Source of the DNA: an uncultured Planctomycetia bacterium
GTDB lineage: Bacteria; Omnitrophota; Gorgyraeia; VGKH01; JBHPFN01
Assembly (NCBI GenBank): GCA_964406665.1
Contig: CAYOSQ010000007.1
Coordinates: 11,364 to 75,363, forward strand
Direction of reading: 5' to 3'
Length of the DNA: 64,000 bases
Program-made: the position numbers and the translations under genes
Shown here: piece after piece, positions 36,596-62,469 of the stretch
Position numbering within the stretch: position 1 is the first letter of the stretch
Layout: the number at the start of each line of letters is the position of its first letter
The notes under the pieces: model-generated
What the model was told of the DNA's origin: nothing
The model's database searches: none
What the model saw: only the letters and a program-made list of their open reading frames with translations

Positions 36596-36708
36596 ATTTA
36601 CAAATTACCATATGTGCATACCAATGTCAACGAAAGACAATTTTCATAAACATAATTGCCCTTGTGATTTATAAATAATTATGCTATAACTTTGTTCTAA
36701 GGAGGAAC

Positions 36709-37476: not shown

Positions 37477-37477
37477 G

Positions 37478-37494
37478 TGTATTTTTTAAAAATA
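37478..37494. terminator. AT-rich palindrome GTATTTTTTAAAAATAC between convergent genes
   Basis: Seen in sequence between the + gene stop (37476) and the - gene stop (37513). Weak stem (A/T only). Confidence 0.25.
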
Positions 37495-37512
37495 CTTCCG
37501 CAGCAAAAAATA

Positions 37513-38922: not shown

Positions 38923-39054
38923 AATTTCAAAAGTACCTTTCAATGAAATAGTTACAGGTATATTGTATAGCTCTGTAAGAAAAATATCAAGCTAAGCTAC
39001 GATTATCTATTTTTTTGTTGCCAGCTTAACATTTATAGTATATGATTTGATAAT

Positions 39055-41142: not shown

Positions 41143-41144
41143 AA

Positions 41145-42008: not shown

Positions 42009-42030
42009 ACTATCCTCATTCACCCTTAAC

Positions 42031-44116: not shown

Positions 44117-44134
44117 AAGATTAATTTCCTAAAA

Positions 44135-45967: not shown

Positions 45968-46124
45968 AATAACTAAGAATTACCGATGATGATTTTTTCA
46001 TTTCTGTATTTATTTTACCTTACCGCATATATGTGTCAATCTTATAATCGTTTAAGTTATAACTTGTTAATTTGCTTGTTCTTAAACTAGCCTAATGATA
46101 CAATATCCGAAAAGGAGGCAAAAA

Positions 46125-46649
46125 ATGAAACTATTAAAAATAATAATTGTCATCTCTTTTTGTGCTATTATCTTTCTACCTGCATCAACATTTGCACAAA
46201 AAAAGCAATACAAATTCTTTGACGGTGAAGATTGGACATATATAGATAGGCTAGAAATACCTGGAGAAACTAAGGTAAAAATTAAGGCACTGGTGTTAAG
46301 ACCAATGTATGAAACTACATTTTTGATGGGAAGTCCTGCGGTTGAAACTTCTGGGCCGATCATTGATTTTCTTCCTGATCTAGATAAGTTTTACGAACAC
46401 AAAGAAAACAAACCACTCCCCCTTCTCTTTGCATTAAAAATAATTGAAGCGCAAAGACGTGGAGCCTCAATACCAACAACTCAAAAACTTAGAAGTTCAA
46501 TGATTATTAAGCTAGTTAATGCAGGCGTAATAGATCCTGCCCGCATAAAGAAACTTTATGGAGAAAAAACTACAGAACCACCCCAAGAAAAACCTGGAAA
46601 AGAAGAATCTGAGGAGAAAAAAGGATTTTTCGGATTATTCAACCGGTAG
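46125..46649 (+). CDS. Secreted hypothetical protein
   Basis: Strong AAGGAGG SD 8 nt before the ATG at 46125. Signal peptide MKLLKIIIVISFCAIIFLPASTFA. The track ORF starts further upstream at 46095. Confidence 0.5.
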   Translation: MKLLKIIIVISFCAIIFLPASTFAQKKQYKFFDGEDWTYIDRLEIPGETKVKIKALVLRPMYETTFLMGSPAVETSGPIIDFLPDLDKFYEHKENKPLPLLFALKIIEAQRRGASIPTTQKLRSSMIIKLVNAGVIDPARIKKLYGEKTTEPPQEKPGKEESEEKKGFFGLFNR

Positions 46650-46672: not shown

Positions 46673-47854
46673 TTACTGACTTCTAATACCGTATTCTTCC
46701 ACAATGAATCTTTTCCATTTATCTTCGAACTTATCAAAGTTGTCCCCAAAAACCTTCTCTAGCGCACTCTCTGCAGACATGCCCATTCCCAGATATTCCA
46801 ATATATTTTTGAGCCCGCTATTTCCAACTCTTTTTACAATAAAATCTACAAGTAGATAAGACTCGATATACATAAGGGTTACCATGTTCATATCTTTCAT
46901 ATGCGAAAAATCCTGAGGTATCTGCCTTATAGGCCTTATACCAAAATGAGAAATATATTTTTTTATTAAATCCCTATCTCTCATTTCTACAAAATCTTCC
47001 GCTTTGCTTGCAATTCCTTCATTAAGCCATAATGGACAGTTACCTTTAGTTATTTCATGCACGAGTGCATGCGCATATTCATGATAAACAATTTTTATAA
47101 CATCCTGATCAGTATACTTAAATTTATTTACAGGAATTCTTAACTTTCCATCAAAAATAGCCATTGTCCAATGAGGCCTTCGATGTAACAATTGGTCATA
47201 ATTATTCTCTGAATACAATATTGCGATAACTTTATTAGCAGGATATTGATCAAGAAACATCCCTACCCTTCCATATCCTTCTTCAAGATATGTTCTAATA
47301 TAGGATAATTTATTTACTGGCAGATCGCTAGAATAAGCTATCACGAAATGCATTGTTTCATATTTACCAAAACTCTTCTCGACCTTCTCTTCGCCGCTTA
47401 CTTTATCTAGAAGTTCCCTTAAACCTTTAAGTTCTGGCTTTAAGGCATAGGCTTTACTTAGATATACTTTTGCCTTTTTCATATCCTGAATCCTATAATA
47501 GGCCTGGCCGATATTGTAAAGAGTAAATGGATTACCTTGGTCAAAATTGAGAGCTTGCTCAAACTTCTCAATTGCCAGCCCTGGATTACCATTATTCATA
47601 AGATAAAATGCATAGTTGTTGTAAGCAATTGAAAGGTTCTTTTTAATATTATTATTGGCAGGACTATAAAGATGGGCAGTCTTTAAATCATTTATTGCAC
47701 CTTGGTAATTATTGTTTCTGAGCTTGTTCAGGCCACTTTCATTATATTTGTAAGCCGCCTCATCTGAGCAAAACGCAAGCTTAACAAACAATAAAAAAGC
47801 TAGTAAAACCATAAAGGGTATGATTCTGCGAAAAGTTTTTTTTGTCATCAACAA
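46673..47854 (-). CDS. TPR-repeat protein with a C-terminal Peptidase_MA-like HExxH domain
   Basis: N-terminal signal/TM, TPR-like repeats, then YHEYAHALVHE...PLWLNEGIASKAE (the HExxH...P.W..EG.A pattern of the Peptidase_MA_2 family). Confidence 0.45.
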   Translation of the reverse strand: MLMTKKTFRRIIPFMVLLAFLLFVKLAFCSDEAAYKYNESGLNKLRNNNYQGAINDLKTAHLYSPANNNIKKNLSIAYNNYAFYLMNNGNPGLAIEKFEQALNFDQGNPFTLYNIGQAYYRIQDMKKAKVYLSKAYALKPELKGLRELLDKVSGEEKVEKSFGKYETMHFVIAYSSDLPVNKLSYIRTYLEEGYGRVGMFLDQYPANKVIAILYSENNYDQLLHRRPHWTMAIFDGKLRIPVNKFKYTDQDVIKIVYHEYAHALVHEITKGNCPLWLNEGIASKAEDFVEMRDRDLIKKYISHFGIRPIRQIPQDFSHMKDMNMVTLMYIESYLLVDFIVKRVGNSGLKNILEYLGMGMSAESALEKVFGDNFDKFEDKWKRFIVEEYGIRSQ

Positions 47855-47926
47855 TCATTATAGGCTTAATTGTATGGCTGTCAATAAAACTAACCGTGTT
47901 TTAAATTTTAAAAAGATAAGATGTAA

Positions 47927-47956
47927 TTGACCTATCTATGAACCTAATGGTATAAT
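47927..47956 (+). promoter_or_regulatory. Near-consensus sigma70-type promoter: TTGACC, 18 nt spacer, TATAAT
   Basis: TTGACC at 47927-47932 and TATAAT at 47951-47956, seen directly. The -10 ends 1 nt before the ATG at 47958. Confidence 0.4.
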
Positions 47957-47957
47957 T

Positions 47958-49313
47958 ATGCAAAATAATAAGAGAATTTATCATAAAATGTCAAAAAGAT
48001 CTAATTACTATCTCAAAGAAATTGAAAATTATATAAATTTCCTGATCCCACCCCATTCTTCTGTATTAATGTTGGGTTGTGGATGCGGTGAAATCTTAGG
48101 CTCGCTTAAACCCTCTCGAGGATTAGGCATTGACTGCGAAATCAAAAACATAGACGCCGCAAGAAAAAGCTTCCCCTCTCTTGAATTTCAAGCTGGCATA
48201 AATGAGCTAAAAAATATTCATGAGAAATTTGATTATATCCTAATCTATGACATCCCTAATGATATAGATTCGCTTAAGAAAACTTTAAAAATACTAGAAA
48301 GTTGCTCCCTGTCAGATTCTCGAATTATAATAATCCATGATAAGAAAAAAACCTGCCCTGAATGTAATGCTAAGAATAAAGTTTCTACTCTTAAGTGGAG
48401 TGCTATTAAAGGTGCTATTTCACAAGAATCAATCGAACCCATTAAAGAAGCCCATAGAACTCTCATTTGCAAATATATTCCACTTATTTCAGTGCTTTTC
48501 AATAAAATAATCATAAACCTACCGATTTTCTGGAGATTTTCTTTAATTAATATTCTAGTAGCCAAACCTACTAAAACCAGAAAACCCCAAAAAGATGTAT
48601 CCTGCTCTGTCATAATTCCCTGCCGTAACGAAAAAGGTAATATTGAACCTGCAATTAAAAGAACTCCCAAGATGGGTAGTCATACAGAATTTATCTTTAT
48701 AGAAGGACATTCTCAAGACGGTACGCTTGAAGAATGCTACAGAGTGCAAAAGGCTTATCCAGAAAAAGATATAAAAGTATTCGTACAAGACAACGTAGGC
48801 AAGCGAGATGCAGTATACAAGGGCTTCGCTAATGCGAAAGGCGATATTTATATAATACTTGATGCAGATTTAACAGTTTTACCAGAAGACCTGTCTAAAT
48901 TTTTCAACGCTATCGCCTCAGGAAAAGGAGAATTCATAAATGGCTCAAGGTTAGTTTTAAAAATGGAAAAAGAAGCAATGCGAAAACTAAATTGGCTGGC
49001 TAATAAATTTTTTGGCTTTATGTTCTCCTATTTGCTCTCACAAAAACTCACTGATACATTATGTGGAACAAAAGTTTTGTGGAAAGATGATTTTCAAAGA
49101 ATAGTCGCTGGCAGATGCTATTTTGGTAACTTTGACCCCTTTGGTGATTTTGACCTAATACTCGGATCTGCAAAATTAAATCTAAAATTTGTTGAAATCC
49201 CCATCAGGTATCAAGCTAGAAAATATGGCTCTACTCAGATATCGAGATTTAGGCATGGGCTACTGCTTCTTAAAATGACAATATTTGCCATGAGAAAAAT
49301 AAAATTTATTTAG
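47958..49313 (+). CDS. Fusion: class I SAM methyltransferase (N-terminal) plus GT2 polyprenyl-phosphate glycosyltransferase (C-terminal)
   Basis: VLMLGCGCGEILGSL (MT motif I), then CSVIIPCRNEKGNIEPAIKR ... ILDADLT (GT2 DxD). The real start may be the Met at 47988, given the promoter position. Confidence 0.7.
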   Translation: MQNNKRIYHKMSKRSNYYLKEIENYINFLIPPHSSVLMLGCGCGEILGSLKPSRGLGIDCEIKNIDAARKSFPSLEFQAGINELKNIHEKFDYILIYDIPNDIDSLKKTLKILESCSLSDSRIIIIHDKKKTCPECNAKNKVSTLKWSAIKGAISQESIEPIKEAHRTLICKYIPLISVLFNKIIINLPIFWRFSLINILVAKPTKTRKPQKDVSCSVIIPCRNEKGNIEPAIKRTPKMGSHTEFIFIEGHSQDGTLEECYRVQKAYPEKDIKVFVQDNVGKRDAVYKGFANAKGDIYIILDADLTVLPEDLSKFFNAIASGKGEFINGSRLVLKMEKEAMRKLNWLANKFFGFMFSYLLSQKLTDTLCGTKVLWKDDFQRIVAGRCYFGNFDPFGDFDLILGSAKLNLKFVEIPIRYQARKYGSTQISRFRHGLLLLKMTIFAMRKIKFI

Positions 49314-49323: not shown

Positions 49324-50814
49324 TTGGGAAAAGGTAAAAAAGCAAAATTAGAATTAGAGAAAAGAAATGTAATCATTGTTATTGCAATAATCTTTGCAGT
49401 TGGGCTATTTTACTTCTTTACTTTAAGAGAAGGCCACAACTGGGGTGGAGATTTTGCCATGTATATCCATCATGCTAAGAATATTGCAGAGGGCTTAAAC
49501 TATAGGGAAACCGGATATATATTTAACCCTCTAAACCCGATTGCCCCTAAAACCTTTCCTCCTGTTTTCCCTCTTTTGCTGTCGCCGATTTATTTAATAT
49601 TCGGCTTAAATTTAGCCGTAATGAAAGTCGAGGTAGTTTTATTCTTCCTAGCATCAGTTTTTTTAATGTTTCAAATATTCAAGGATGATCTACCGTTTAA
49701 ATATATTATCCCTCTTATTATTCTAATAAGCCTTCATCCATTCTTCTGGTCTTTCAGGAATAACGTCATTTCTGATTTTCCGTTTTTATTTTTTGTATAT
49801 TTAAGCATCTTTTTAATCCACAGAAAGCGACCCAAGGATAAATCCAAGAAATTTCAATTCCTAAATGCTGTCTTAACTGGATTTGCTGTATACTTAGCCT
49901 GCGGAACAAGAAGTATAGGCATTGTATTAATTCCCACTTTGATTTTAAGCGAGATTTCTCGATATAGAAAAATAACTAAGTTTTCAGTAATTTCCACACT
50001 CACCACAATTCTATTTTTGCTATTACAAACAATCTTCTTTTACAGCGCACGGGGAAATCTGGAGTTCTTCTTCTTAAGCAAAAAAGTTGTATTATTTAAT
50101 ATTTCGATGTATTCAAAGATAGCTTTCTTGTTCTGGAATAACGGATATATCCAACCTTTGAGCTTAGGACTATTAATCTTAATGTGCATTTTAGCTGCAG
50201 CCTCTTACATAACCAGAACCAGAAAAAAAATCACTGCATTGGAAATATTTCCTTTCTTTTACTCAATTCCAATTATTGTTTGGCCATACTTTGATGGCCC
50301 AAGATTTATTTTCCCGCTTATTCCTCTCTTCTTATTCTATGCTTTTACTGGACTTTACAGAATTATCTTAAATCGCAAGAAAAAAATCGAGAAAATTGCA
50401 TTTATCACAGTTTTCTCTTTATGTTTTTTAACTTATTTTCTTCAATACACAAAGATGGATTTCGGCAAAATACATGAAGGAATAGCTAAAAAGGAGAGCG
50501 TCGAACTCTTTAACTACATCAAAAAATCTTCTGAAAAAGACGATGTTTTCATCTTCGTAAAGCCGCGAGTATTATCTTTTTATACCGAAAGAAAAACCGC
50601 AATTTATCCTATAGTAAAAAATGATACTGAATTCTGGAAATATCTTTTGCAAATAAAAGCTAGTTATTTAATTGTTAACAAAAACTTTCCTAATGATTTG
50701 AGAATACTTTTACCATTTGTTTTAAAATTCAAAAGCTATTTAAGCAACGTATTTTCTAATGATGACTTTATTCTACTCAAAATCCAGTGGAACTTATTAC
50801 CCTACAATAAGTAA
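49324..50814 (+). CDS. PMT_2/ArnT-like GT-C membrane glycosyltransferase
   Basis: GGDFAMYIHHAKNIAEG...TFPPVFPLLLSPIYLIFGLNLAVMK is the PMT_2-type N-terminal loop. About 11-12 TM helices. Confidence 0.6.
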   Translation: MGKGKKAKLELEKRNVIIVIAIIFAVGLFYFFTLREGHNWGGDFAMYIHHAKNIAEGLNYRETGYIFNPLNPIAPKTFPPVFPLLLSPIYLIFGLNLAVMKVEVVLFFLASVFLMFQIFKDDLPFKYIIPLIILISLHPFFWSFRNNVISDFPFLFFVYLSIFLIHRKRPKDKSKKFQFLNAVLTGFAVYLACGTRSIGIVLIPTLILSEISRYRKITKFSVISTLTTILFLLLQTIFFYSARGNLEFFFLSKKVVLFNISMYSKIAFLFWNNGYIQPLSLGLLILMCILAAASYITRTRKKITALEIFPFFYSIPIIVWPYFDGPRFIFPLIPLFLFYAFTGLYRIILNRKKKIEKIAFITVFSLCFLTYFLQYTKMDFGKIHEGIAKKESVELFNYIKKSSEKDDVFIFVKPRVLSFYTERKTAIYPIVKNDTEFWKYLLQIKASYLIVNKNFPNDLRILLPFVLKFKSYLSNVFSNDDFILLKIQWNLLPYNK

Positions 50815-50874: not shown

Positions 50875-50891
50875 AGTAAATGGCATTTACT
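50875..50891 (+). terminator. Weak hairpin AGTAAAT-ggc-ATTTACT followed by TTGTTATC
   Basis: Seen in sequence 60 nt downstream of the 49324-50814 stop. AT-only stem, so it is weak. Confidence 0.25.
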
Positions 50892-50939
50892 TTGTTATCA
50901 AATTGAATTATAATAATCTAAGAAAAGAATTCAAATAAT

Positions 50940-53111
50940 ATGAAAATAATCATTTTTTCACTTATAGGTCTGTTTTTAGTTTTTCTTCTGCTAATATCTC
51001 TTCTTTTAAGCATAGATCGCCTTAGTTCGAGAAAATCAACAAAATCATCAATACCAAAAAAGATAACAAGAAAAACATCAAAAGCTAAAAAGATATTTTT
51101 CAACAGCTTGTTTATCTTGTTGCTGTCTTTTATTTCAATTGCGCTTGTTTATACATCTTACAATATTAATTCAATGGTTTCCAAAAAGAGTTCCACTTCA
51201 GACAAAAAAAAGACTGTTCTAGATAAAAGTATTCAAGGTGGGGTTTTAGAAAATAGCTCTGGTAGAGACTATTCTATCGATACAAAAACCGCATCTTCAA
51301 AAATATCAAAAGAAACAAGCAGTAAAGAAAGTGGCTCTTTAACCACATCTGAACAAAAATACTCACGAGGCCAAAGCGAAACTGCCGAATCAACTTTTTT
51401 AATGGATATCCCCTCAAGCACTCAAGAATCATCCACTTTGACAACTTTTTCTGACACTTTTACACCAACTACTTCAGAATTTGATTCTTCAACTTTTTTG
51501 AACATTATGTCTTCATCCTTTTCGAAAAATAAAGATGAAAAAGAATCAAAGCCTATTGCTTACTTAAAAGGTGCAAAGCCTGGTGAAATATTTATCACTG
51601 CTTTTTACGATCAAATGAAAAATGGTAAATTCACAAAATCTGAAAAGATAGGTTTTTCTCAATCTGAAAATAACCTTTGCAACAATATAAATATAGCCAT
51701 AAACCTGCCTAGCTTAAGAAAATCCCAACTAACACAACTTCCCTTTACTATCAATGGTTCAATTGTACCCCAAACTTCTAAAGATTTACCCTTAGAATTA
51801 AATAAAAAGGGAATTTTAAAACCTTTAAAAGATTTTAAAAAAAGTGAGTTTGATTATACGATAAAAAACTGCATAGGATCACCCAGTATCGTCCTAGAGA
51901 GAAAAAAGACAGAATGGTTAACGAAAGAGATAAAAAACATACCTGAGGAACTAATTGGGTTTTTAAAAGCAGTAAAAGAAAAAAATAGTTTTGTAAAACT
52001 TGCCACTGTAGCATCTATATTGAATTCCTATTTCGGATATCAGGCTTCTCTTGAACCAATTGAACTACCTAAAAACAATACCTGGGGAAATCTTTTAACA
52101 GAAAAAATAGCTCTTAATGAAAAGCTGCTTTGCGACTGCGATGTATTATCAACCTATTCTTACATTTTTCTTCAATATTTGGATTTCAACCCAATCTTAC
52201 TTATTGGTTATTTTAACAGCCCTAAACATAGCGAATCTCTAATGGCTGAGGAACTACATGCAACTCTATTGATTGAATCAGATGGTAAATGGATTATATT
52301 TGAGCCAACACTGTTCGTTCATAATTTTACTTTTGAAATTATCAAAAAGAAATTAAAAATTATCGGACCAGTTTTTAAAGGCATTCTTTCTACTGATTTA
52401 ACCGAAAGAGGTATTGATCCAGAATCGTCCATGTCTTATATAATTGAGAATTCTGAAATCGGCTATTTCAGAATTCCTGAAAGCATATCAGAAGACCTGG
52501 AAGAAATTAATCATCAATCTCAAGCAGAAATTAAGCTCGCTAAATTGATTATAGAAATATTGTCTTTTAAGGATAATAAGTCTAAAAATTATAATGATAG
52601 CGGAGACACCACTTTTCCTATAATGTTATTAGTTCAATCTTCTATTGTAATGTATTTTTTGAGCATTATTTTAATTAAGCTATTCGCCGCACTCAAAGGT
52701 TTTAGAAGAATTGTATTCCCTATAGATAAACCATTCTTTTACATCTATCATTTGTTGCTTTTTGCTGTTTTTGTGAGCATATTAAGCCGTTCTCTTGCAG
52801 GCGAAGCTTCAGCCTATTGGAGCAAATCAACAACCGCTAACTTCTTAGGAATCACTTTTTGCCTATCTGCTGGTATAAGTAGTGCTATATTAATGATCGT
52901 CTTTCTATTTTCTGATAAAACTGAAACTATGTACAGCAATAAACTTATCCAATCCATCAATGACAGATCGTACCTTATCGTTGGATTACTATTCACTATT
53001 TCTGCCTTACTCTACTCTCCAAGCAATATTGTCTTTATAAGTTCGCTTTTAATAATAGTTCTATTTATTGTAGAAATAAAAAAAATATGCGATAATCTAA
53101 AGATAGTTTGA
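50940..53111 (+). CDS. Membrane-anchored transglutaminase-like protein with an S/T-rich linker and C-terminal TM helices
   Basis: N-terminal TM, then a ~120-aa Ser/Thr-rich low-complexity region. Transglutaminase-like core: Cys in LLCDCDVLSTYSY, His in ELHATLLIE, acid in GKWIIFEPT. Four or more C-terminal TM helices follow. Confidence 0.55.
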   Translation: MKIIIFSLIGLFLVFLLLISLLLSIDRLSSRKSTKSSIPKKITRKTSKAKKIFFNSLFILLLSFISIALVYTSYNINSMVSKKSSTSDKKKTVLDKSIQGGVLENSSGRDYSIDTKTASSKISKETSSKESGSLTTSEQKYSRGQSETAESTFLMDIPSSTQESSTLTTFSDTFTPTTSEFDSSTFLNIMSSSFSKNKDEKESKPIAYLKGAKPGEIFITAFYDQMKNGKFTKSEKIGFSQSENNLCNNINIAINLPSLRKSQLTQLPFTINGSIVPQTSKDLPLELNKKGILKPLKDFKKSEFDYTIKNCIGSPSIVLERKKTEWLTKEIKNIPEELIGFLKAVKEKNSFVKLATVASILNSYFGYQASLEPIELPKNNTWGNLLTEKIALNEKLLCDCDVLSTYSYIFLQYLDFNPILLIGYFNSPKHSESLMAEELHATLLIESDGKWIIFEPTLFVHNFTFEIIKKKLKIIGPVFKGILSTDLTERGIDPESSMSYIIENSEIGYFRIPESISEDLEEINHQSQAEIKLAKLIIEILSFKDNKSKNYNDSGDTTFPIMLLVQSSIVMYFLSIILIKLFAALKGFRRIVFPIDKPFFYIYHLLLFAVFVSILSRSLAGEASAYWSKSTTANFLGITFCLSAGISSAILMIVFLFSDKTETMYSNKLIQSINDRSYLIVGLLFTISALLYSPSNIVFISSLLIIVLFIVEIKKICDNLKIV

Positions 53112-53123
53112 TTTTAAAATCGC

Positions 53124-54410
53124 ATGAAAATGAAAAACTTAATTCACATACTTTTTATTTCTATTGCTACCATATCTTTTTTAACTATGCAGCCTTGTCC
53201 TTTTTTAATAGCTTTAGGAGATACGAAACCTGCCATAGAGGAAGAAATTCCCGATTACTATATGCCCTACTTGGAGTTTTTAGAAGAAGTTTACAATAAA
53301 ATGGACCAATATTACTATAAGCCTATTTCAAAAGATGTTTACGATACTTATGTGGAAAAGTACAAAAGATCTGTTTTGAGTAAGATCGGAAAACATGATA
53401 AAAAAATTAATAGAATTGCTCATATTGGAGCAGGTCTTATGGTTAACCATTTAAAGGATAGAAAAGAAGATAACTTTACTAATTTTATTCCACCAAAAGA
53501 GGCTAAAGAATATGCAAAGAAAGTATACGGCTATGAAAACGGCATAGGAATAACTGGAACTGTAACCGAAAAAGGATATAAGATTACTCATGTACAAATA
53601 AGGTCAGATGCCTATAAAAAAGGCATATCTTCAGAAGATATTGTTCTTAAAATTAATGATTTTGATATCTTATCGCTAAGCGAAGAAGATTTAAATAATT
53701 ATCTTTTCCCCCCACTAGAAACAATAATTAAACTGGAAATTCTTTCATACAAAGAAGAAAAAACTAAGATATATAAAGTTGTCTGCGAAGAATATTTTAA
53801 AGAAACAATTACCAATATTTCTACCAACACACCTAGAGTTTTTTGCTTAAAAATTCATACATTCAACAGAAAAACTTCCGATGATTTTAAGGAATACATT
53901 AAAGATTTTACAAAAAAAGATATCGATTTACTTATCATTGATCTAACAGATAATCCTGGAGGCCCCCCTTTGGCAGTACATGAGCTTTCTGGAATATTCT
54001 TCCCTCCCGAAACCAAGCTGGTTTACTACAAAAAAAGGGAGGCTGAAAAGTTTGGCTTAATATCGCCGGAATCAAATATCCACTATGATGGAAAGGTTGC
54101 AATTTTAGTAAATAAAATGAGTGGGAGCGCTTCTGAAATTCTTGCCGGTACAATGAAAGCCTACAAAAGAGCTATTGTCGTGGGAAAAGAATCAACGGCA
54201 GGAAGAGCATTTCTTAAAAGCACCTTCAATTTTGAAGATGGCTCTATGCTCGCCATGGTAACCGGTTTTGCCTATCTTGCCGATGGAACTAAATTCGGCA
54301 TGGAAGGTGTCTCTCCAAATGTAAAAGTACCAATGGATGCAGATAACATGTTATTATATATTATTGATAAATACAAAGAAAACGCCTTAGCCAAACCAAG
54401 CCTTCAATAA
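53124..54410 (+). CDS. S41-family C-terminal processing (tail-specific) peptidase
   Basis: A PDZ-like segment, then DLTDNPGGPPLAVHELSGIFF and KMSGSASEILAGTMKAYKRAIVVGKESTAGRAF (the Ser/Lys dyad region). Confidence 0.85.
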   Translation: MKMKNLIHILFISIATISFLTMQPCPFLIALGDTKPAIEEEIPDYYMPYLEFLEEVYNKMDQYYYKPISKDVYDTYVEKYKRSVLSKIGKHDKKINRIAHIGAGLMVNHLKDRKEDNFTNFIPPKEAKEYAKKVYGYENGIGITGTVTEKGYKITHVQIRSDAYKKGISSEDIVLKINDFDILSLSEEDLNNYLFPPLETIIKLEILSYKEEKTKIYKVVCEEYFKETITNISTNTPRVFCLKIHTFNRKTSDDFKEYIKDFTKKDIDLLIIDLTDNPGGPPLAVHELSGIFFPPETKLVYYKKREAEKFGLISPESNIHYDGKVAILVNKMSGSASEILAGTMKAYKRAIVVGKESTAGRAFLKSTFNFEDGSMLAMVTGFAYLADGTKFGMEGVSPNVKVPMDADNMLLYIIDKYKENALAKPSLQ

Positions 54411-54414
54411 AATT

Positions 54415-56883
54415 ATGTCTTGTTTTAAAAAATTGAACAATAAATTCCTGACTTATCTGCTGATTTCAATAACTGTAATCACCATTGGGCTACATTTTAG
54501 ACTTTATCCTATCACCATCAATTTAAACAGACAAAATCTTTCTGCTTCGAGGATTGCTCTCTTCATAAATATAAAGAAAACTCTAGCCAGAAAAATTAAT
54601 GCTGCTTTCCCAAACCTTCCACAAGAAAACAAAAATGTTTTGATAAATAAAGGATTTGAAAGTTTTACAAAAAAGGATCCTGAAAAATTAAAAGCCTTGA
54701 TAGATGAATTCAAATCAAAAAATGAGAATTCATTATATAGATACTTTCTTCTTGGCTCTGATTCCTATTATTTCTATTATCTAACAAAAGAGATAGTTTC
54801 CCACGGAGCCATATCCAAACAAATAAAAAACGGAAGTTACTTTGATGTTCTTATGAGTGCACCTGGCGGCCATTGGAGGAAAATTGAAGCTCACCCCTAT
54901 TTCGGTTTTTCCATCTACAAACTATTCACTGTTTTTTCTAAAGATTTTTCTCTTCTCTGGGCTTTATCTATTGTTCCTTTAATACTTTTTACTGTCTCGG
55001 CCTTAATTTTTATTTTAATTTGTTTAAATCTAAAGATTGATAAAATTAACATTCTTTTCAGCTCTTTATTCTTTTGTCTTTCTCCAATCTTCATTCAACG
55101 CAGTTCTTTTGGTTGGTACGATAGTGACCCATACAATATTCTATTCTTGTGCCTTGCGCTTTTTATAATTCTTAAGTTAGTAAAAAATGAAACTCATATC
55201 TTCTGGTCCCTTTCCTTGGGTTTTGTTACAGGACTATATTCATTATTTTGGCAGGGCTGGGTTTTGCTACCTGCTCTGTCTTTTTCATCTATGTTTTTTG
55301 TTTTAATCATAAAGGTTATCGAAAAACAAAAATTTACAATATTATTAAAAAAAATCGGGCTATTTTCTGCAAGTTTTCTTATTTTTGCAATAATTATACT
55401 TTCTCCTAAAGGCTTCGCAAATTCTGCTTCCGATATTTCAAGCATCATCTTTGGTTTTTTTCAGCTAAATTCAAATTTATGGCCTGATATCTTCTTAACC
55501 GTCGGAGAACTAAAGTCGCCCAATGCTTTAAAGATTATTCACACATTAGGTGGCTATGTGTTTATCGGAGTTGCTGTTTTGGGTTTTATCTTATTATGCT
55601 TTGGAAGAATCAAAAATTCAGATAAAGGACAGAGTATTGTAATAGTAGTTTCGACAATTTTATGTTTATTATTAACCAGAAACGCTGAACGCTTTGTCCT
55701 CTTTTTATTAGTTCCTATTTCAATTTGTTTTGCGCTAGGAATTAATGAGATCTGGAGGGCTGTAAATACGCAGTACTCAAAAATATCCAAGTTGAGAAAA
55801 AATCATTGTAACTGTGCAGCGACTTTTACATTATCCCTACTTTTGATTTCTCCCTTTATTTACGGCCATGCAACATCTCTTTCTCAAGTCCCTCTTTTTA
55901 ACATCGTATGGAAAGATTCACTTGAAAAAATAAAGAACAAGACTGATAAATCAGCAGTAGTCAATTCCTGGTGGCCTCCTGGACACTTCATTAAAGCTAT
56001 TGCTGAAAGAAGAGTAACTTTTGACGGTGCAACAATCAACACTCCTCAGGCATACTGGATGGCTAATTTCTTTTTATCAAATAGTGAAGAAGAAGCTTTA
56101 GGCATACTAAGAATGTTAAATACCAGCAGCAATGAAGCAACTGAATTTATGATTGATAAAAGAATTCCTCTTCAGAAAGCAATACCTTTATTAAAAGAAA
56201 TAATTGTAAAAAGTAAGCAATCTGCCAAGGATACCCTGAAAAACTATTTAGATGATAAAGATATAGAGCGTATTTTAATATTAACTCATTCAAGCCCCCC
56301 TCCTTCCTATTGCCTTATTTATAATGAAATGGTGGAGAACGCTCTTGGTCTTCGGTTCGTCAAAAATTGGAATTTCAATAAAGCATTTAATATTAAGAAG
56401 GAGCGGTATGCCGCTTTAAAAAAGGGAAAGTTCTTCTGGAGGGGAACCAAAGACTATATAGGAGAGGCTTGGTCTGTTTCTGGTGGTCCAACATACATCG
56501 GAGAAGAATCTTACGAAATCTCCACTAATAATAATTCAATTCGATTTGCTAACGGAGTAATCCTAGATAAAGAATTAATGATTGCTAAAATCGATAGGCT
56601 TGAAGACAAAATATCCGGGGTTCCCCATTCCTTGCTTTATGTAAAAAATAATAAACTAATAGAGAAAAAACTTGAAAATCCGACTATTAAGCTTTCTGTC
56701 TTAATTATTCCTCATTCTAATAACAGTCAAAGTTCAATTGTTGCTCCCGCTGAAGTTCTAAAATCTATTCTTTTTAGGCTTTATTATCTTGATGGGCTGG
56801 GATTAAAAAGGTTTGAAAAGGTTATTCAAGAAGAAAACCCTTTGCTTAAAACAAGGATTTTTGTCTTTAAAATTATCTGGTAA
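54415..56883 (+). CDS. STT3/PglB/AglB-family oligosaccharyltransferase homologue with WWPPG in place of WWDYG
   Basis: EL1 GSDSYYFYYLTKEIVSHGAISKQIKNGSYFDVLMSAPGG resembles STT3 fDPYFNYRtTRFlaeeGfykfhNWFDDrAWYPlG. RSSFGWYDSDPYNILF resembles RSvAGsYDNEgIAIF. The C-terminal soluble domain NKTDKSAVVNSWWPPGHFIKAIAERRVTFDGATIN...NFFLSNSEEEALGILRML resembles NTpEdAkVmSWWDYGYQI..mANRTtLVDNNTWNN...SSnEeaAYkIMR.L. About 13 TM helices. Confidence 0.6.
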   Translation: MSCFKKLNNKFLTYLLISITVITIGLHFRLYPITINLNRQNLSASRIALFINIKKTLARKINAAFPNLPQENKNVLINKGFESFTKKDPEKLKALIDEFKSKNENSLYRYFLLGSDSYYFYYLTKEIVSHGAISKQIKNGSYFDVLMSAPGGHWRKIEAHPYFGFSIYKLFTVFSKDFSLLWALSIVPLILFTVSALIFILICLNLKIDKINILFSSLFFCLSPIFIQRSSFGWYDSDPYNILFLCLALFIILKLVKNETHIFWSLSLGFVTGLYSLFWQGWVLLPALSFSSMFFVLIIKVIEKQKFTILLKKIGLFSASFLIFAIIILSPKGFANSASDISSIIFGFFQLNSNLWPDIFLTVGELKSPNALKIIHTLGGYVFIGVAVLGFILLCFGRIKNSDKGQSIVIVVSTILCLLLTRNAERFVLFLLVPISICFALGINEIWRAVNTQYSKISKLRKNHCNCAATFTLSLLLISPFIYGHATSLSQVPLFNIVWKDSLEKIKNKTDKSAVVNSWWPPGHFIKAIAERRVTFDGATINTPQAYWMANFFLSNSEEEALGILRMLNTSSNEATEFMIDKRIPLQKAIPLLKEIIVKSKQSAKDTLKNYLDDKDIERILILTHSSPPPSYCLIYNEMVENALGLRFVKNWNFNKAFNIKKERYAALKKGKFFWRGTKDYIGEAWSVSGGPTYIGEESYEISTNNNSIRFANGVILDKELMIAKIDRLEDKISGVPHSLLYVKNNKLIEKKLENPTIKLSVLIIPHSNNSQSSIVAPAEVLKSILFRLYYLDGLGLKRFEKVIQEENPLLKTRIFVFKIIW

Positions 56884-56887: not shown

Positions 56888-57820
56888 CTATTCAAAAACT
56901 GGTCTCACTTGCCCTTGAATCTGCACCTTTCCAGTACCCCCAACTTTAACCCTAGTGGTAACAGTACCTGTACCTGACTGTCTAACTGTGTTATCATCGG
57001 GAGTTTCAACTCCATCGTCTACCATTTGGGTCTTTATCGTAAGCTTACCTTTTCCTGAAACCTGAGATGTAGGCTGACCCGTAGATAAATCAACAGTTTG
57101 TGGATCACCATTCGCAGGTTGAGCCTTAGGTCTATTATCATATTCTTTGATTGCATTTGTTACATTCAAACCACCACCACTACTATGCTTTCTCATAATC
57201 TTTTCTAACTGAGTGGCTAAAAATTCCTCTCTTATCTCTCTTAGTCTTGTCACAGAATCTAAAGCTGCATAATTATCACCCATTAATAAGTAGGTCAAAC
57301 CATTAAGGTAAAGCAGCTTTTCAAATTTGGGTCTTTGCTTCTCGGCTTTTAAAAAATACTCATTAGCTTTATAAGCATCTTTTTTATCAATAAGATAAAG
57401 CAATCCTAAATTAAAGTTTAAATAAAAATAATTAGTGTCAAATTTCAAACCTTTTTTGAAAATTTCAATTGCAGCATCTTTATCATTAAGTTTATTTAGA
57501 GTTGAACCAATATAGTTATAAACTTCCACTTGTGCTGGATTAATAGAAATTGATTTATTAAAATTTTCTAACGCTTTTTCCTCAAAGCCTTTCTTCTGAG
57601 AATAAATACTCCCCAGCAGATTATAAGCATAAAAAAAACTAGGGGCAATTTTTATAACATCATGACAAATTAATTCTACTTGCTCATACTCTCCTGCTTC
57701 AAATAATTCCTGTGCTTGTTTCATCAACGTGTAAACCGAATCATTCTGGGCAAATACAATCCCATCTTTAAAAAAAGTGAACATAAAAATAAGAATAATT
57801 ACGATCAGAGACTTCTTCAT
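56888..57820 (-). CDS. Secreted TPR-repeat protein with a Gly/Thr/Val-rich C-terminal tail; last gene of the T2SS-like operon
   Basis: Signal peptide MKKSLIVIILIFMFTFFKDGIVFAQ, several TPR-like units, and a ~90-aa low-complexity C-terminus. Confidence 0.55.
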   Translation of the reverse strand: MKKSLIVIILIFMFTFFKDGIVFAQNDSVYTLMKQAQELFEAGEYEQVELICHDVIKIAPSFFYAYNLLGSIYSQKKGFEEKALENFNKSISINPAQVEVYNYIGSTLNKLNDKDAAIEIFKKGLKFDTNYFYLNFNLGLLYLIDKKDAYKANEYFLKAEKQRPKFEKLLYLNGLTYLLMGDNYAALDSVTRLREIREEFLATQLEKIMRKHSSGGGLNVTNAIKEYDNRPKAQPANGDPQTVDLSTGQPTSQVSGKGKLTIKTQMVDDGVETPDDNTVRQSGTGTVTTRVKVGGTGKVQIQGQVRPVFE

Positions 57821-57829: not shown

Positions 57830-58444
57830 TTATTCCATTTCTTCTTCTGATATCTCTTCTTCTACGGCAATTTCAGGAACAGATCCATCAGGCATAATAA
57901 TTATCTTCTCAACTGTCAAAGCACATTTTGCTTCATAATCATCTCGGTTTTTAGGAGAGATTTCAAAAGAGGCTACTCGCATTGGCTTTTGAGAATCTTC
58001 GATTGAATAAATAAAATCTGTAAGTGCCTCCATTTTGCCGGAGCATTCAATTGATAAGGTACTACGAATAAAACCCTTTTTTAATTCAGAATAAACAGGA
58101 TTAATATTAGTAAGTGCCACATTGGAGGATTTTGCCAGCTTTTCCACCTCGCTTAAAAAAAATGCTGTTCTTTGATCTTGAGTAGAGTCTAAATTAGCAT
58201 AAAAATCTCCGTGTAATTCATCTTCACCAATAATTTTATCTTTATATTGTAGAATCATCAGATTCTTTTCAATTAGTTTCGTCTGAGAATCAATTCTTTC
58301 CTCAAGCAAATTTGATTCTCGTGAAATAGGACCAACAACTAATCTGTCAAACAAAGCCAAACACACAAGGCCTCCCGCAATATACAGAATCTTTTTTTCT
58401 TTTGGTGAAAGTCCAGAAATGAATGCTTTTAGCATATTAGCCAT
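57830..58444 (-). CDS. GspM/PilO-like bitopic inner-membrane protein
   Basis: Short cytoplasmic N-terminus, single TM (ILYIAGGLVCLALF), a coiled segment, then a ~120-aa periplasmic domain. The position after the gspL-like gene is typical. Confidence 0.45.
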   Translation of the reverse strand: MANMLKAFISGLSPKEKKILYIAGGLVCLALFDRLVVGPISRESNLLEERIDSQTKLIEKNLMILQYKDKIIGEDELHGDFYANLDSTQDQRTAFFLSEVEKLAKSSNVALTNINPVYSELKKGFIRSTLSIECSGKMEALTDFIYSIEDSQKPMRVASFEISPKNRDDYEAKCALTVEKIIIMPDGSVPEIAVEEEISEEEME

Positions 58445-58445
58445 A

Positions 58446-59909
58446 TTAAGACCTCTGTTCTATAAGCAACGATAAACCAAAATCAGCAAGCTCTTTTCCC
58501 TGCAACATTCTACTTTTAGTAAAATCTACTTTTACATTTTTAAACGACTTGTTGTTTTCTAAATCTGTTACTAAAGAAAAAACCATCGACATTGAATCGG
58601 CGGTTCCTGTAAGCATAACAGAACCATCTTCTCGCAATCCTATGCTGCTTAGATATACCTCATCAGGCATTGCACTGTAAAGTTCAGTCAACACATAAAG
58701 AGACACACCTTTTTTATCTAAAAATCTTTTTATGGTACCTGTCCTTTTTCTAATTTCCTTAAGATCTTGAACTTCCTCATTTTTTTCTGAATATCTAGAA
58801 AGTAAATTCTTTAAATATATTTTCTTAAAAATCATACCTGTCAATAGAAGAGCGCAAAGAATTACAAGTACAGCCATGGCCGACATACCCATGATCGTCA
58901 CTTCTTTTGCCTTAGCTTTCAAAGCTTGATTAATCTTAACATCTTCAGGAATAAGATTAAGTTTACTTTGCTGAAACGCAAATGAAGCAGCAATAATATC
59001 TAAAAAAGAACTATCTTTATTTCCGGAAAGCGCTTCAGAAATGTCCTTATTCGTAGCAAAAATCTTTGAATATGGGATTACGTCCACTCCGGTACCAGCT
59101 ACCCCTTTTACTTCTTCTGTAAAGCTAGATACACAATCAGTCGCACCAACTACAAAAAAGTGAGCTGGCAAAGAATCCATGTTTTCCGATTGGTAAGATT
59201 CTACAGACTTTTTTATCTCATCAAGGATTTTTTGCTTGTTTGTTTGAAGATCAGCAGTAATTTCTGCTGCTCCTATAGGAATTGATCTTGTGTAAACAAC
59301 AACACCTTTATTGCTAATTATAAAATCAATATTATATTTATCTACATGAATTAAACCTAAGGTTTTATCTCTCAACTCCTTTGGCTGTATGCTGCAACAC
59401 AATTGGGAAATTGGCTCTGAAGTTAAAAAAGCAGTATTAGCCTTAAATCCTGCTTTTTTTATAGTTTCGTACCGGCCTGAGACTACGTCTCTTTTAACTA
59501 AAACTAGCAATATCTTTGTATATCTTTCGTGGAATACACCAATATTCATGTAATCCATTACGATTTCATCACGAGAATATGGCGTATGCCTACCAGCTTG
59601 CAAATCAATAATTTCTTTTATTTCCTTCTTATCGATTGAAGGGATTTCTATATTTTTAGTTATTGCAAAGTGTGACGGTATAACATTAACTGTTTCGCAT
59701 TTTTTGATATGATGCTTAGCCGCAAACTCCTTTATTTTCTCAGGAATCTTTTCATCAGCATCACTGGAAATTTCTGAAGCAAAAACCCCTACTATCTCTT
59801 GCTTTTCTTTACTAATCTTAACAAAGGCCAGCTTAAGACATTTCTCAGCAATTTCTATTACAAAAAAATCTTTATAGGCAGTAGCAATATTTTTTTCCGC
59901 TGGAACCAT
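58446..59909 (-). CDS. GspL-like protein: PilM-like actin-fold cytoplasmic domain, one TM, and a PilN-like periplasmic domain
   Basis: 487 aa. The N-terminal ~330 aa has a PilM-like two-subdomain pattern. TM helix MGMSAMAVLVILCALLLTGMIF, then a ~120-aa C-terminal domain. Same architecture as T2SS GspL. Confidence 0.6.
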   Translation of the reverse strand: MVPAEKNIATAYKDFFVIEIAEKCLKLAFVKISKEKQEIVGVFASEISSDADEKIPEKIKEFAAKHHIKKCETVNVIPSHFAITKNIEIPSIDKKEIKEIIDLQAGRHTPYSRDEIVMDYMNIGVFHERYTKILLVLVKRDVVSGRYETIKKAGFKANTAFLTSEPISQLCCSIQPKELRDKTLGLIHVDKYNIDFIISNKGVVVYTRSIPIGAAEITADLQTNKQKILDEIKKSVESYQSENMDSLPAHFFVVGATDCVSSFTEEVKGVAGTGVDVIPYSKIFATNKDISEALSGNKDSSFLDIIAASFAFQQSKLNLIPEDVKINQALKAKAKEVTIMGMSAMAVLVILCALLLTGMIFKKIYLKNLLSRYSEKNEEVQDLKEIRKRTGTIKRFLDKKGVSLYVLTELYSAMPDEVYLSSIGLREDGSVMLTGTADSMSMVFSLVTDLENNKSFKNVKVDFTKSRMLQGKELADFGLSLLIEQRS

Positions 59910-59913
59910 TTTA

Positions 59914-60981
59914 TTAAAATTCCTCCGAATTTACGTATTGATATCCCCAGTATTTTATCTTTCCACCTCTGTCAAAAACACAAATAATCCTTGCCTGCAA
60001 ATCATCATCATCCAATGAACCTCTACAATGTGCAGTAAAGGTACTTGAGCTTATATCTAAGTTTCCTTCTTCTATTACCTTATCTAAATCTTCCTTCTCC
60101 TTATCAGATAAATCGTAATAGCTGGATAGCTCACTTTCAATATCAACAAGGGAGCTAAAAATGTTATCGTCAAAAGTCCCCTCAGTCATATCTGGACCAG
60201 AACGGAAATTTGCAATTTTATACACCAAAGTATCCGATAAACCTAGAGAAAATAATGTTGTTTTTGAAGCAGTGTTGATATTAACCTTTCCGTTACTAAA
60301 AACAGTTATATGGTCTCTAATCTTTAAAAAAACGTCCTTGCTTAAGCCCTTGATAAGAAGCAATTCCTCCAAATTCTTTAATTCAACATTACTCGGATGA
60401 TATTCGTATCCGGAATTAGAATAATCTACGCGTTCACTCAGATTTCTTTCATCATTATTCAGAATATCATCACCATCGCGCCAATCAATAAGCGAACTAA
60501 CTACCTGGGAAACTATAACAGGATCAAAAATACCCAAAGACGAAAATAGCCTTTCAATCATTTCTTTTGATGCGAAATTAATGTTAATTTTCCTTTCTTC
60601 ATCTACAACACCATATTTTCTTTCCTTTCGCCCAGTAACGTTATTAAAATATGTATAAGAAACAGAAAACCTACCATTGGAAAGCTTGACATTTCTAAAT
60701 GCACCCAAATTATGCGCCCAAAAATCATTTAATGAATCACTATCAAAGGTTAAGTCTCTTTTTTTCTCTGCTCTAACCATATTGATGCTTTTTAACATAC
60801 CAGAGTAAACTATGCTGTACAATTTATCTCTAGCTTCAATCTTTTTTCTTACAAGGATTTCCTGTCTAACCATAGAACCTGAATAAATTGCAATTATGCT
60901 AAGAAATAATAGTGTCCATAAAGCCAAAATCAAAGCACTACCATTATCAGCTAAGGTTAATTTAGTTTTAGAATTAAACAT
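59914..60981 (-). CDS. GspK-like minor pseudopilin
   Basis: N-terminal hydrophobic segment GSALILALWTLLFLSIIAIY without Glu5. Two helix-hairpin-helix-like INxNTAS motifs (ININFASKEM, VNINTASKTTLFSLGLS) characteristic of GspK. Confidence 0.6.
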   Translation of the reverse strand: MFNSKTKLTLADNGSALILALWTLLFLSIIAIYSGSMVRQEILVRKKIEARDKLYSIVYSGMLKSINMVRAEKKRDLTFDSDSLNDFWAHNLGAFRNVKLSNGRFSVSYTYFNNVTGRKERKYGVVDEERKININFASKEMIERLFSSLGIFDPVIVSQVVSSLIDWRDGDDILNNDERNLSERVDYSNSGYEYHPSNVELKNLEELLLIKGLSKDVFLKIRDHITVFSNGKVNINTASKTTLFSLGLSDTLVYKIANFRSGPDMTEGTFDDNIFSSLVDIESELSSYYDLSDKEKEDLDKVIEEGNLDISSSTFTAHCRGSLDDDDLQARIICVFDRGGKIKYWGYQYVNSEEF

Positions 60982-60993
60982 GTTTTATGCTCA

Positions 60994-61605
60994 TTAAACG
61001 CTAATTGGAATTTCTATAACTTTAGTAAAACTTTCCGTTGAATCACTGTTATTTCTTATTTTTATATTAATCTCAACAGCTATAGGTAATTGATCGCTTA
61101 AAGTATATTTTTTTTCAAAACCACCACCTACACCCCCTGACACAAAAAAAGCAAACGTAGCTTCCTCTACGTTAGCTAAACTAGAAAGATCGACTTCAGG
61201 ACTAGTAAATCCATATTTATACATTTTTCTTCTTATCTCTTTTCTCTCAGGAATATAAACATACTCTATCCGACTAATTGCATCATCCTGAAATAATAAA
61301 GCTGATTGGGCATTTTCGGAAACAACTAAATATTCAGGATTATGAACCAGAAAAGAAACAGAAAAAGAGCTTCCGTTAAAATCTGAAGAAGCAATATCGC
61401 AATAATTCCTTAAATCAGAAGATACCTTATCAAAAAAAATCAACACTTCTCCATCTGGACGATTAGCTTCTATCCATTTCCAAACTGTTATACCGCTAGT
61501 AAAAGTTTTATATATTCCTAAACCCACAAAAGTCATTATGGATGCAACTAATAAAATCTCTACTAAGGTTATCCCTTTTTTTCTTAAAACTTTCTTTCGC
61601 ATCAT
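60994..61605 (-). CDS. GspJ-like minor pseudopilin
   Basis: Class III signal KKG|ITLVEILLVASIMTFVGLGIY. 203 aa. Confidence 0.55.
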   Translation of the reverse strand: MMRKKVLRKKGITLVEILLVASIMTFVGLGIYKTFTSGITVWKWIEANRPDGEVLIFFDKVSSDLRNYCDIASSDFNGSSFSVSFLVHNPEYLVVSENAQSALLFQDDAISRIEYVYIPERKEIRRKMYKYGFTSPEVDLSSLANVEEATFAFFVSGGVGGGFEKKYTLSDQLPIAVEINIKIRNNSDSTESFTKVIEIPISV

Positions 61606-61608
61606 AGC

Positions 61609-62001
61609 CTATAAACGTTTTATGTATAATTGCTTACTGATAGATACCTCTTTTCTCTCCTCATTCCAAGAGGCGGTTATATCTAAGCTATACAAATCCG
61701 GGAAATCTCTGATCTTTTTTACTCTTAGCTTAAAATCAATCTCAGGATTATGCCCTTCGACAACGTTAGACAAAAACTCATTAGAAATATCTTTGGTTTT
61801 AAGAGTCCTTTTTATATCCCATATTTTTTCTTCTATCTTTAATTGCGCTTGAAATCTGTTTTCTAAATGCTTCAAAGCAGCCATAGAGCCAAAAAGAATC
61901 CTAAAAATACTAGTAATGCCAAATGCCAAAACAGCCATGGCAACTAAGATTTCAAGAAGCATAAATGCTCTTTTTCTTTTAAAAAAATATTTTCTTAGCA
62001 A
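61609..62001 (-). CDS. GspI-like minor pseudopilin
   Basis: Prepilin-like N-terminus KRKRAFMLLEILVAMAVLAFGI (Ala at the -1 position). 130 aa. Confidence 0.5.
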   Translation of the reverse strand: MLRKYFFKRKRAFMLLEILVAMAVLAFGITSIFRILFGSMAALKHLENRFQAQLKIEEKIWDIKRTLKTKDISNEFLSNVVEGHNPEIDFKLRVKKIRDFPDLYSLDITASWNEERKEVSISKQLYIKRL

Positions 62002-62005
62002 ATAA

Positions 62006-62455: not shown

Positions 62456-62469
62456 TAGCTTCCTCCTTA

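Follow-up and report, generated by a model that had tools for sequence, protein, structure and literature searches.

How a membrane-bound transglutaminase-like protein, an S41 peptidase and an STT3-family glycosyltransferase come to be encoded side by side, and on what they might act together, is the question raised by three genes (here g1, g2 and g3, in their 5' to 3' order) in a 64,000-nucleotide (nt) stretch of DNA from an uncultured member of the Omnitrophota (contig CAYOSQ010000007.1, positions 11,364 to 75,363 of the forward strand), the whole of which we call the window. An initial annotation had read the three genes as a coordinated unit for processing and glycosylating envelope proteins, in which a Ser/Thr-rich linker of the g1 protein could itself be a substrate. 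Our comparison of loci demonstrates that what is conserved at the core is the pairing of a gene for a secreted serine protease with the STT3-like gene, and that g1 is a clade-specific accessory. The g3 protein belongs to a distinct STT3 clade, found in 198 species-level genomes or more, nearly all of which carry the label Omnitrophota, in which the catalytic machinery is kept while the residue that reads the sequon is replaced. It is in this generalised form, a phylum-wide pairing of a protease with an STT3 protein lacking the WWD aspartate, that the wider interest of the locus lies. The bacteria in which STT3-type N-glycosylation has been characterised are, to our knowledge, confined to the Campylobacterota and some Desulfobacterota, and the Omnitrophota lie outside the bacterial groups for which we know of a characterised PglB. 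If g3 is active, it would offer a new acceptor specificity, of interest for glycoengineering, and the locus would be a new case of proteolysis coupled to glycosylation at the bacterial envelope. Full-text literature searches (oligosaccharyltransferase, STT3, PglB) returned no description of an Omnitrophota STT3 system; a preprint on giant Omnitrophota genes reports loci resembling a type II secretion system (T2SS) near those genes and mentions neither STT3 nor transglutaminase (10.1101/2023.11.21.568195).

A serine protease and an STT3-like protein are the conserved core

The GTDB scan that found the STT3-like gene covered one genome per species; from it we drew 80 loci, almost without exception labelled Omnitrophota (loci carry L numbers and proteins P numbers below). 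Their six-frame open reading frames (ORFs) were scored with the window proteins and with family hidden Markov models, and 73 of the loci had enough upstream sequence. In 62 of these 73, the STT3-like gene is immediately preceded, on the same strand, by a gene for a secreted serine protease. In 14 it is an S41 peptidase of the window type, which abuts the STT3-like gene; in 48 the position is taken by a secreted S1 protease of 220-260 aa (Trypsin_2, 80-98 bits), with the His, the Asp and the Ser of GDSGGP intact (examples among L020-L088 are L037, 9077-9898, and L069, 9283-9975). Neither protease lies upstream in the other 11, two of which carry S1 fragments; L053, also among the 11, has an S41 gene downstream. 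The order STT3-small ORF-GT2-GspK-S41 occurs in L053, in L079 (which has no usable upstream sequence) and in L006 and L007 (sister clade). When the STT3-like proteins are placed on a neighbour-joining tree, loci with S41 upstream group in one clade, next to a clade of loci with S41 downstream, and the S1 loci make up the other large clade. Since the type of protease tracks the STT3 tree, we suggest that the pairing is ancient and that the protease family was exchanged within it by non-orthologous replacement.

By comparison with this pair, g1 has a narrow distribution. It is restricted to the S41-upstream clade, where it is found in 8 of the 14 species loci (in one of them weak or partial) and also in L001, L002/L003, L091 and L092; in the S1-type loci no g1 was found. 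Considering that g1 is missing from many S41-type loci, it appears dispensable for the core function. The linkage of g1, S41 and STT3 genes on which the idea of a coordinated unit was founded is therefore upheld by synteny and by gene fusion, whereas the place of g1 among the core members is not.

Where g1 does occur in this clade, it always stands first in the order g1-S41-STT3. About 10 diverged Omnitrophota genomes or contigs share the order g1-S41-STT3 (L001, L004/L009, L010, L011, L012, L015, L017, L018 with a weak or partial g1, L044, L091 and L092), at 34-50% identity to the window for the STT3-like protein and 24-37% for g1, and the gaps between the genes are tiny or the genes overlap. 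The junctions of L001 (+8/-11 nt) and L004 (-17/-4 nt) are tighter than those of the window. Three close relatives (STT3 identity 45-50%) keep g1-S41-STT3 with the first two genes either separate or fused. The fusion, a single protein of 1081 aa (P0004), is present in two independently assembled contigs, and its junction is the signal-anchor helix of the S41 protein with RRLLRK ahead of it, which fits a cytoplasmic C-terminus of g1 and a periplasmic S41 domain. On the basis of this fusion, g1 probably acts physically with the S41 protease.

In the window itself, the letters read directly give a TGA stop, 12 nt and an ATG at the g1/g2 junction, and a TAA stop, 4 nt and an ATG at the g2/g3 junction, so that the ORFs and spacings of the three + strand genes are exactly as first annotated. 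No terminator-like hairpin was seen on the + strand anywhere in a scan of 45.5-58.5 kb, which includes the junctions between g1, g2 and g3. The same scan gave 48 promoter-like hexamer pairs against 53 +/- 8 expected by chance and, since such matches occur at chance frequency, it is uninformative on internal promoters. The 125 nt that separate g1 from the GT-C-like gene upstream hold a promoter-like site matching at 10 of 12 positions (50886-50914). We conclude that g1-g2-g3 is probably a conserved operon, whose genes would be co-transcribed. By predicted topology, all three catalytic domains lie on the periplasmic face of the inner membrane, and we are fairly confident that the three proteins form a functional unit.

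Active sites and architecture of the three proteins

The STT3-like identity of g3 was borne out by Pfam STT3 (PF02516; 73.1 bits against a cut-off of 24.5) and by matches of the clade profile to the PDB structures of human STT3A (1e-19), Archaeoglobus fulgidus AglB (2e-17) and Campylobacter lari PglB (1e-9); with NCBIfam archaeo_STT3, g3 scores 58 bits, for a cut-off of 450. In common with these enzymes, g3 has a multi-transmembrane (TM) N-terminal domain, glycan-assembly genes nearby, and a large periplasmic C-terminal domain of the kind typical of peptide-binding oligosaccharyltransferases (OSTs). Residues D116, R229, D236, D238 and E365 (in TVGE), the equivalents of D56, R147, D154, D156 and E319 of PglB, are invariant in 25 relatives, and the R-x6-D-x-D spacing is the same in both proteins; in STT3-type enzymes these D, R, DxD and E residues serve metal binding and form the clamp on the acceptor carboxamide (PMC7226087).

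What the first reading of g3 had missed is the loss of the WWD aspartate, which normally hydrogen-bonds the hydroxyl of the +2 Ser/Thr of the sequon (PMC7226087). Residues 519-523 of g3 (55969-55983) read WWPPG and align with the WWDYG of STT3A and AglB. All 23 members of the clade have WW[P/C/S]PG, both Trp being invariant, whereas an outgroup (P0034/P0035, 26% identical) keeps WWDFG. Further, FDGAT of g3 (D537 invariant) aligns with VDNNT of STT3A in the region of the DK/MxxI motif, a correspondence taken from sequence alignment only. Since the catalytic set is kept and the WWD Asp is lost, g3 looks catalytically competent, with a recognition of the acceptor that appears to be altered. In addition to the missing contact with the +2 hydroxyl, g3 differs from PglB, AglB and STT3 in that a serine protease is nearly always encoded immediately upstream.

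The g2 protein had been described as a C-terminal processing peptidase. Its membership of the S41 family holds (Peptidase_S41, 118 bits for a cut-off of 24, with a weak match to PDZ), and an N-terminal signal or anchor segment spans residues ~6-29. The narrower assignment fares less well, in that TIGR00225 (the prc subfamily) gives 153.7 bits, under its cut-off of 218.6, and the canonical lysine is absent. The nucleophile is Ser335 (SG-S-ASE), which aligns with the catalytic Ser of the CtpA/CtpB structures over ~290 residues and is invariant in 20 window-type S41 orthologues. In the alignment with these structures, Arg361 occupies the position of the canonical general-base Lys of TFGKG; four residues further on, Lys365 (xLK) is invariant in every complete window-type sequence (g2 358-366 reads TAGRAFLKS, 54195-54221). 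The Lys365 column is, we presume, that of CtpB Gln338, the third member of the triad. The second type of S41 protein, from the sister clade, keeps the canonical TxGKASVQ. From these motif states we infer that the general-base Lys has moved by four residues, rather than that g2 is a dead enzyme. Thus g2 resembles CtpA, CtpB and Prc in its S41 domain, its PDZ-like segment, its invariant Ser within G-S-x-x-E and the tetratricopeptide repeat (TPR) proteins encoded nearby, and differs from them in having Arg for the canonical Lys and in being fused, in one lineage, to a transglutaminase-like protein.

For g1, the TM anchor, the Ser/Thr-rich linker, the Cys-His-acid core (C400/H440/E455) and the C-terminal TM helices of the initial annotation are all present. 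The protein has seven predicted TM helices, two of them N-terminal (~1-31 and 49-76, separated by a Lys/Arg-rich loop) and five C-terminal (558-722), between which lie a disordered linker (~75-205) and a periplasmic part (~205-470) made up of a beta-sandwich and a transglutaminase-like (TgpA-like) domain. By sequence, g1 has no Pfam, NCBIfam or PDB match (sub-threshold noise only, DUF2141), PF01841 does not match g1 itself even at E up to 10, and the g1 profile finds only TM-helix noise in the PDB, e.g. a somatostatin receptor. We call g1 transglutaminase-like because 12 of 36 relatives match PF01841 Transglut_core (best E 7e-6), because the AlphaFold2 model is confident and because the top Foldseek match of that model is TgpA. 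With a 36-sequence alignment, the model reaches a mean predicted local distance difference test score (pLDDT) of 77.8, and exceeds 90 over ~200-470 (it supersedes a 5-sequence run that, at pLDDT 45, was too poor); it places Cys400 at the N-terminus of helix 400-413, with the His and the acid on the strands that come after. Foldseek gave two matches in the PDB at E < 0.001, both of them the periplasmic domain of Pseudomonas aeruginosa TgpA (6g49/6g4h; E 5.6e-8 and 1.1e-7, probability 1.0, target TM-score 0.55-0.61). When 1.84 billion cluster representatives were searched exhaustively with a profile, no more than 56 relatives of g1 came to light. In the 36-sequence alignment Y367, W382, C400 and H440 are invariant, and the family consensus after the His strand is IFDPT, with Asp at 455, for which the window has IFEPT (Glu455). 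The modelled fold would suit cross-linking, cleavage or deamidation, and could not tell these activities apart. Both this TgpA-like family, with some 56 representatives, and the apparent relocation of the S41 general base can be tested separately.

TgpA (PA2873) is an essential inner-membrane protein of P. aeruginosa with a presumed role in the envelope, and in vitro its periplasmic domain acts as a transglutaminase independently of Ca (PMC3507681). It shares with g1 the fold and the presence of membrane anchors on both sides of a periplasmic Cys-His-Asp/Glu domain. We nevertheless reject g1 as an orthologue of TgpA, since architecture and operon differ: sequence identity is ~11%, g1 has a disordered linker and lacks the DUF3488 5-TM N-terminal domain (it has two TM helices before the catalytic domain and five after), and its partners are S41 and STT3-like proteins, not MoxR/DUF58 (TgpA features from PMC3507681).

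The five C-terminal TM helices of g1 (558-723; 52611-53108) align with a PEMT/ICMT-like domain of the distant relatives P0053, P0060 and P0062 (L093, L094), which match PEMT (best 30.9 bits). These distant relatives were located by a metagenome scan, and a protein search with the 36-sequence profile gave the same 5 proteins. An active PEMT/ICMT methyltransferase was rejected for this block of g1 because the catalytic tail is absent: g1 has no SRNP and ends ahead of the conserved C-terminal H..EE..RY(L/I) segment. The block looks like a degenerate methyltransferase remnant that now serves as a membrane anchor. Separately, the g1 domain (profile positions ~187-446) is also found within giant proteins of 1,100-7,500 aa (P0066-P0077), and P0067, of 1,343 aa, combines it with a peptidoglycan-binding LysM and a methyltransferase domain.

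Possible functions of the protease-STT3 pair

As a general picture, which we hold with moderate confidence, a periplasmic protease and the STT3-like enzyme would form the core of a system to which g1 is an accessory and of which T2SS-like proteins are clients. In this scheme, the adjacent glycosyltransferase island would supply a polyprenyl-linked donor, and g3 would transfer its glycan onto an amide acceptor of an exported protein, possibly an Asn, and would work through the usual D/R/DxD/E metal site with an acceptor rule altered by the change of Asp to Pro in WWD. The serine protease encoded upstream may process the same clients, before or after their glycosylation, or may control the transferase. 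In the clade of the window, g1 would have been added ahead of the protease as a TgpA-like transglutaminase or cysteine hydrolase. The clients would be components or cargo of the adjacent T2SS-like pseudopilus system.

The initial annotation had not connected the T2SS-like cluster with the protease-STT3 pair. The T2SS association was scored on the 65 species loci whose downstream sequence reached 2.5 kb or more. Two or more genes of the T2SS cluster lie within 6 kb past the stop of the STT3-like gene in 51 of these, and a TPR homologue is convergent with the STT3-like gene, within 400 nt of its end, in 39. The association survives rearrangement in L006, L007, L053 and L079, and in the S41-downstream clade GspK lies between the STT3-like gene and the S41 gene. 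Even so, that the T2SS-like system supplies the substrates is a tentative proposal, which we hold to be somewhat doubtful. Omnitrophota are ultra-small bacteria, some of which have been proposed to live as predators or in dependence on a host, and the T2SS-like adjacency would therefore be a concrete place to seek substrates. GT-C enzymes beside genes of type IV filaments are known, as in archaea, where AglB acts on archaellins and type IV pilins (PMC2952790, PMC6098224), and in P. aeruginosa, where the GT-C enzyme TfpW glycosylates pilin (bioRxiv 10.1101/2020.04.19.049825). The locus resembles these systems in having a polyprenol-dependent GT-C gene next to a cluster of the type IV filament family. 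It differs from them in that the cluster is T2SS-like (GspE/F/G/K/L/M-like) and convergent, not in the same operon, in that those systems have no obligate protease partner, and in that the substrates here are candidates.

A more far-reaching version would see in the locus a new, phylum-wide system, in which an STT3 protein without the WWD aspartate works obligately with a periplasmic serine protease, joined in one clade by a TgpA-like transamidase. Glycosylation would be coupled to processing (e.g. if cleavage were needed to expose the modified site or to make it recognisable), the acceptor would be other than N-x-S/T, and the system would mature a T2SS-like pseudopilus or its cargo. Taken as a whole, we think this version unlikely.

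Several points weigh against the general picture of a protease-STT3 core with T2SS-like clients. Every activity that it assigns to g1, g2 and g3 is inferred. The loss of the WWD Asp could mean that g3 no longer glycosylates proteins at all. The canonical Lys column of g2 is variable among orthologues (R/F/K/M/Y/Q/G/S/A) and, given that the second-best PDB relative of g2 by sequence is IRBP, a non-catalytic S41 homologue, g2 could be a pseudoprotease. Moreover, of the 13 S41-type loci whose upstream sequence is long enough, 5 have no g1, and the distant relatives of g1 that carry a PEMT-like tail occur in unrelated housekeeping contexts. Finally, the T2SS-like cluster is convergent with the operon and not co-transcribed with it; the association is lost in 14 of the 65 loci scored (L029, L053 and L079 keep T2SS genes nearby, rearranged), and at least 6 of these 14 retain the S1-STT3 pair. 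Since the pair is kept where the T2SS neighbourhood is not, the link to the protease is tighter than that to secretion.

Among the alternatives, one would make the locus a device for remodelling the envelope or cell wall, the S41 peptidase and a TPR adaptor controlling g1 as a papain-fold hydrolase or cross-linker while g3 modifies an envelope polymer. Control of hydrolases by an S41 protease with a TPR adaptor is established (Prc-NlpI acting on MepS, CtpA-LbcA on peptidoglycan hydrolases), TPR genes lie on both flanks of the operon, and both the essentiality and presumed envelope role of TgpA and the union of the g1 domain with LysM in P0067 are consistent with such a function. However, a C-terminal processing protease in the periplasm would be ill placed to act on g1, whose C-terminus is predicted to lie in the cytoplasm; most genomes have an S1 protease and no g1; and the downstream TPR gene keeps company with the T2SS-like cluster rather than with the protease. 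We regard envelope remodelling as improbable.

A second alternative is that g3 is not a protein OST and instead ligates or polymerises glycan on a lipid or polysaccharide, with g1 as a WbmE-like amidase or transglutaminase that edits the glycan. The replacement of WWD throughout the clade, when the outgroup keeps it, would agree with a non-protein acceptor, as would the position of the operon at the edge of a large glycan-synthesis island and the precedent of WbmE, a periplasmic transglutaminase-like enzyme that modifies O-antigen (as cited in PMC3507681). Against this stand the invariance of the carboxamide-clamping D116 and E365 and of both Trp, the retention of the large periplasmic C-terminal domain typical of peptide-binding OSTs, and the protease as obligate partner, which points to a protein substrate; a non-protein acceptor accordingly seems to us a poor prospect.

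The suggestion that the Ser/Thr-rich linker is a substrate, so that g1 would be both enzyme and substrate of a self-contained unit glycosylated by the STT3-like protein, did not withstand comparison. The linker is real: residues 81-165 are disordered in the model (pLDDT < 50), Ser and Thr make up 39% of residues 75-205 (50% at the peak of a 60-aa window) against 14% of the remaining periplasmic region, and its predicted location is the periplasm, where the C-terminal domain of g3 is placed too. In 35 homologues, however, the equivalent linker is 52-162 aa long with 6-27% Ser+Thr (the exception, at 38%, is a 13-residue fragment), so that the conserved trait is a variable spacer and the Ser/Thr richness is not conserved. 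Further, enzymes of the STT3, PglB and AglB type act on Asn carboxamides, not on Ser/Thr, and activate the carboxamide between the D and E residues that g3 keeps (PMC7226087), and the linker contains a single N-x-S/T. More than 60 genomes have the STT3-like gene and no g1, and for O-glycosylation of the linker the PMT_2-like GT-C protein encoded just upstream would be a more natural candidate. We consider a linker substrate very unlikely. Least probable of all, indeed barely credible, is that these are independent housekeeping envelope genes adjacent through shared gene order, for although the 20-kb neighbourhood is collinear in the closest relatives and part of the synteny is thus common descent, the g1::S41 fusion, the phylum-wide protease-STT3 adjacency despite protease swap and flank rearrangement, and the S1-STT3 pairs that persist in loci without the T2SS neighbourhood speak against it.

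Gene neighbourhood of the operon

Table 1. Position of g1, g2, g3 and neighbouring genes in the window, with the evidence for each assignment
Feature	Coordinates	Strand	Evidence
Peptidase_MA_2 + TPR protein	46673-47854	-	Pfam, synteny
Methyltransferase-GT2 fusion, resembling AglJ/ArnC-type polyprenyl-phosphate sugar transferases	47958-49313	+	Pfam, NCBIfam, synteny
Multi-TM GT-C-like protein, weak PMT_2 match, LA_3751/LA_3752 family	49324-50814	+	Pfam, NCBIfam
g1, transglutaminase-like membrane protein, 723 aa	50940-53111	+	ORF list, family alignment, AlphaFold2, Foldseek
g1 putative catalytic core: LLCDCDVLS (Cys400), ELHATLL (His440), IFEPT (Glu455)	52125-52310	+	Motif coordinates, conservation
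g2, S41 peptidase, 428 aa	53124-54410	+	Pfam, PDB alignments, clade alignments
g3, STT3-family GT-C glycosyltransferase, 822 aa	54415-56883	+	Pfam, motif table (25 relatives), STT3A/AglB alignments
Secreted TPR protein, convergent with g3, 3'-most gene of the T2SS-like cluster	56888-57820	-	ORF list, Pfam
T2SS-like cluster, GspM-like to GspF	57830-63684	-	ORFs, Pfam of homologous loci
GspM-like	57830-58444	-	
PilM-PilN/GspL-like	58446-59909	-	
GspK	59914-60981	-	
Minor pseudopilin	60994-61605	-	
Minor pseudopilin	61609-62001	-	
GspG-like major pseudopilin (DPWGNEYIY)	62006-62455	-	
GspF	62470-63684	-	

The genes that surround the operon are listed in Table 1. The stop codons of g3 and of the convergent TPR gene are 4 nt apart. 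In relatives, the T2SS-like cluster runs on with a GspE-PilZ ATPase and a V/A-type ATPase-like subunit, past the point at which the window ends. No secretin (GspD) or A24 prepilin peptidase was found in the called genes of L001-L007, the remaining window not having been scanned for them. The Peptidase_MA_2 + TPR gene is a constant of the neighbourhood: it lies upstream of the operon in the clade of the window, and in most other genomes within the T2SS-like cluster, flanked by the minor pseudopilins on one side and GspF on the other.

Upstream of the operon, at ~35-51 kb, lies a glycan-assembly island with a GT87 gene, three GT2 genes, a UDP-GlcNAc 2-epimerase, a B12-binding radical-SAM enzyme, two PMT_2-like GT-C proteins (one of 610 aa) and the methyltransferase-GT2 fusion; its 35180-45967 part includes a 695-aa protein without a Pfam match (39055-41142). 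The upstream GT2 and GT-C genes were considered as a fixed part of the operon and rejected, since the methyltransferase-GT2 fusion and the GT-C-like gene adjoin g1 in the closest relatives only; judged by gene order, they are probably not fixed members.

Between the Peptidase_MA_2 + TPR gene and the methyltransferase-GT2 gene, at 47857-47990, near-consensus promoter-like sites stand back to back in divergent orientation, matching at 12 of 12 positions on the - strand and at 11 of 12, with an extended -10 TG, on the + strand. The -10 box of this second site stops 1 nt short of the annotated ATG at 47958; translation of the methyltransferase-GT2 gene may therefore begin instead at the ATG at 47988, or the gene may be leaderless.

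Further upstream, at 46095-46649 on the + strand, the window encodes a secreted protein of 184 aa without a family match, which recurs near the operon in L001 and L011. In L051 and L055 two copies of this protein are encoded directly upstream of S41-STT3, in the position that g1 takes elsewhere, which makes it a candidate substrate or alternative accessory.

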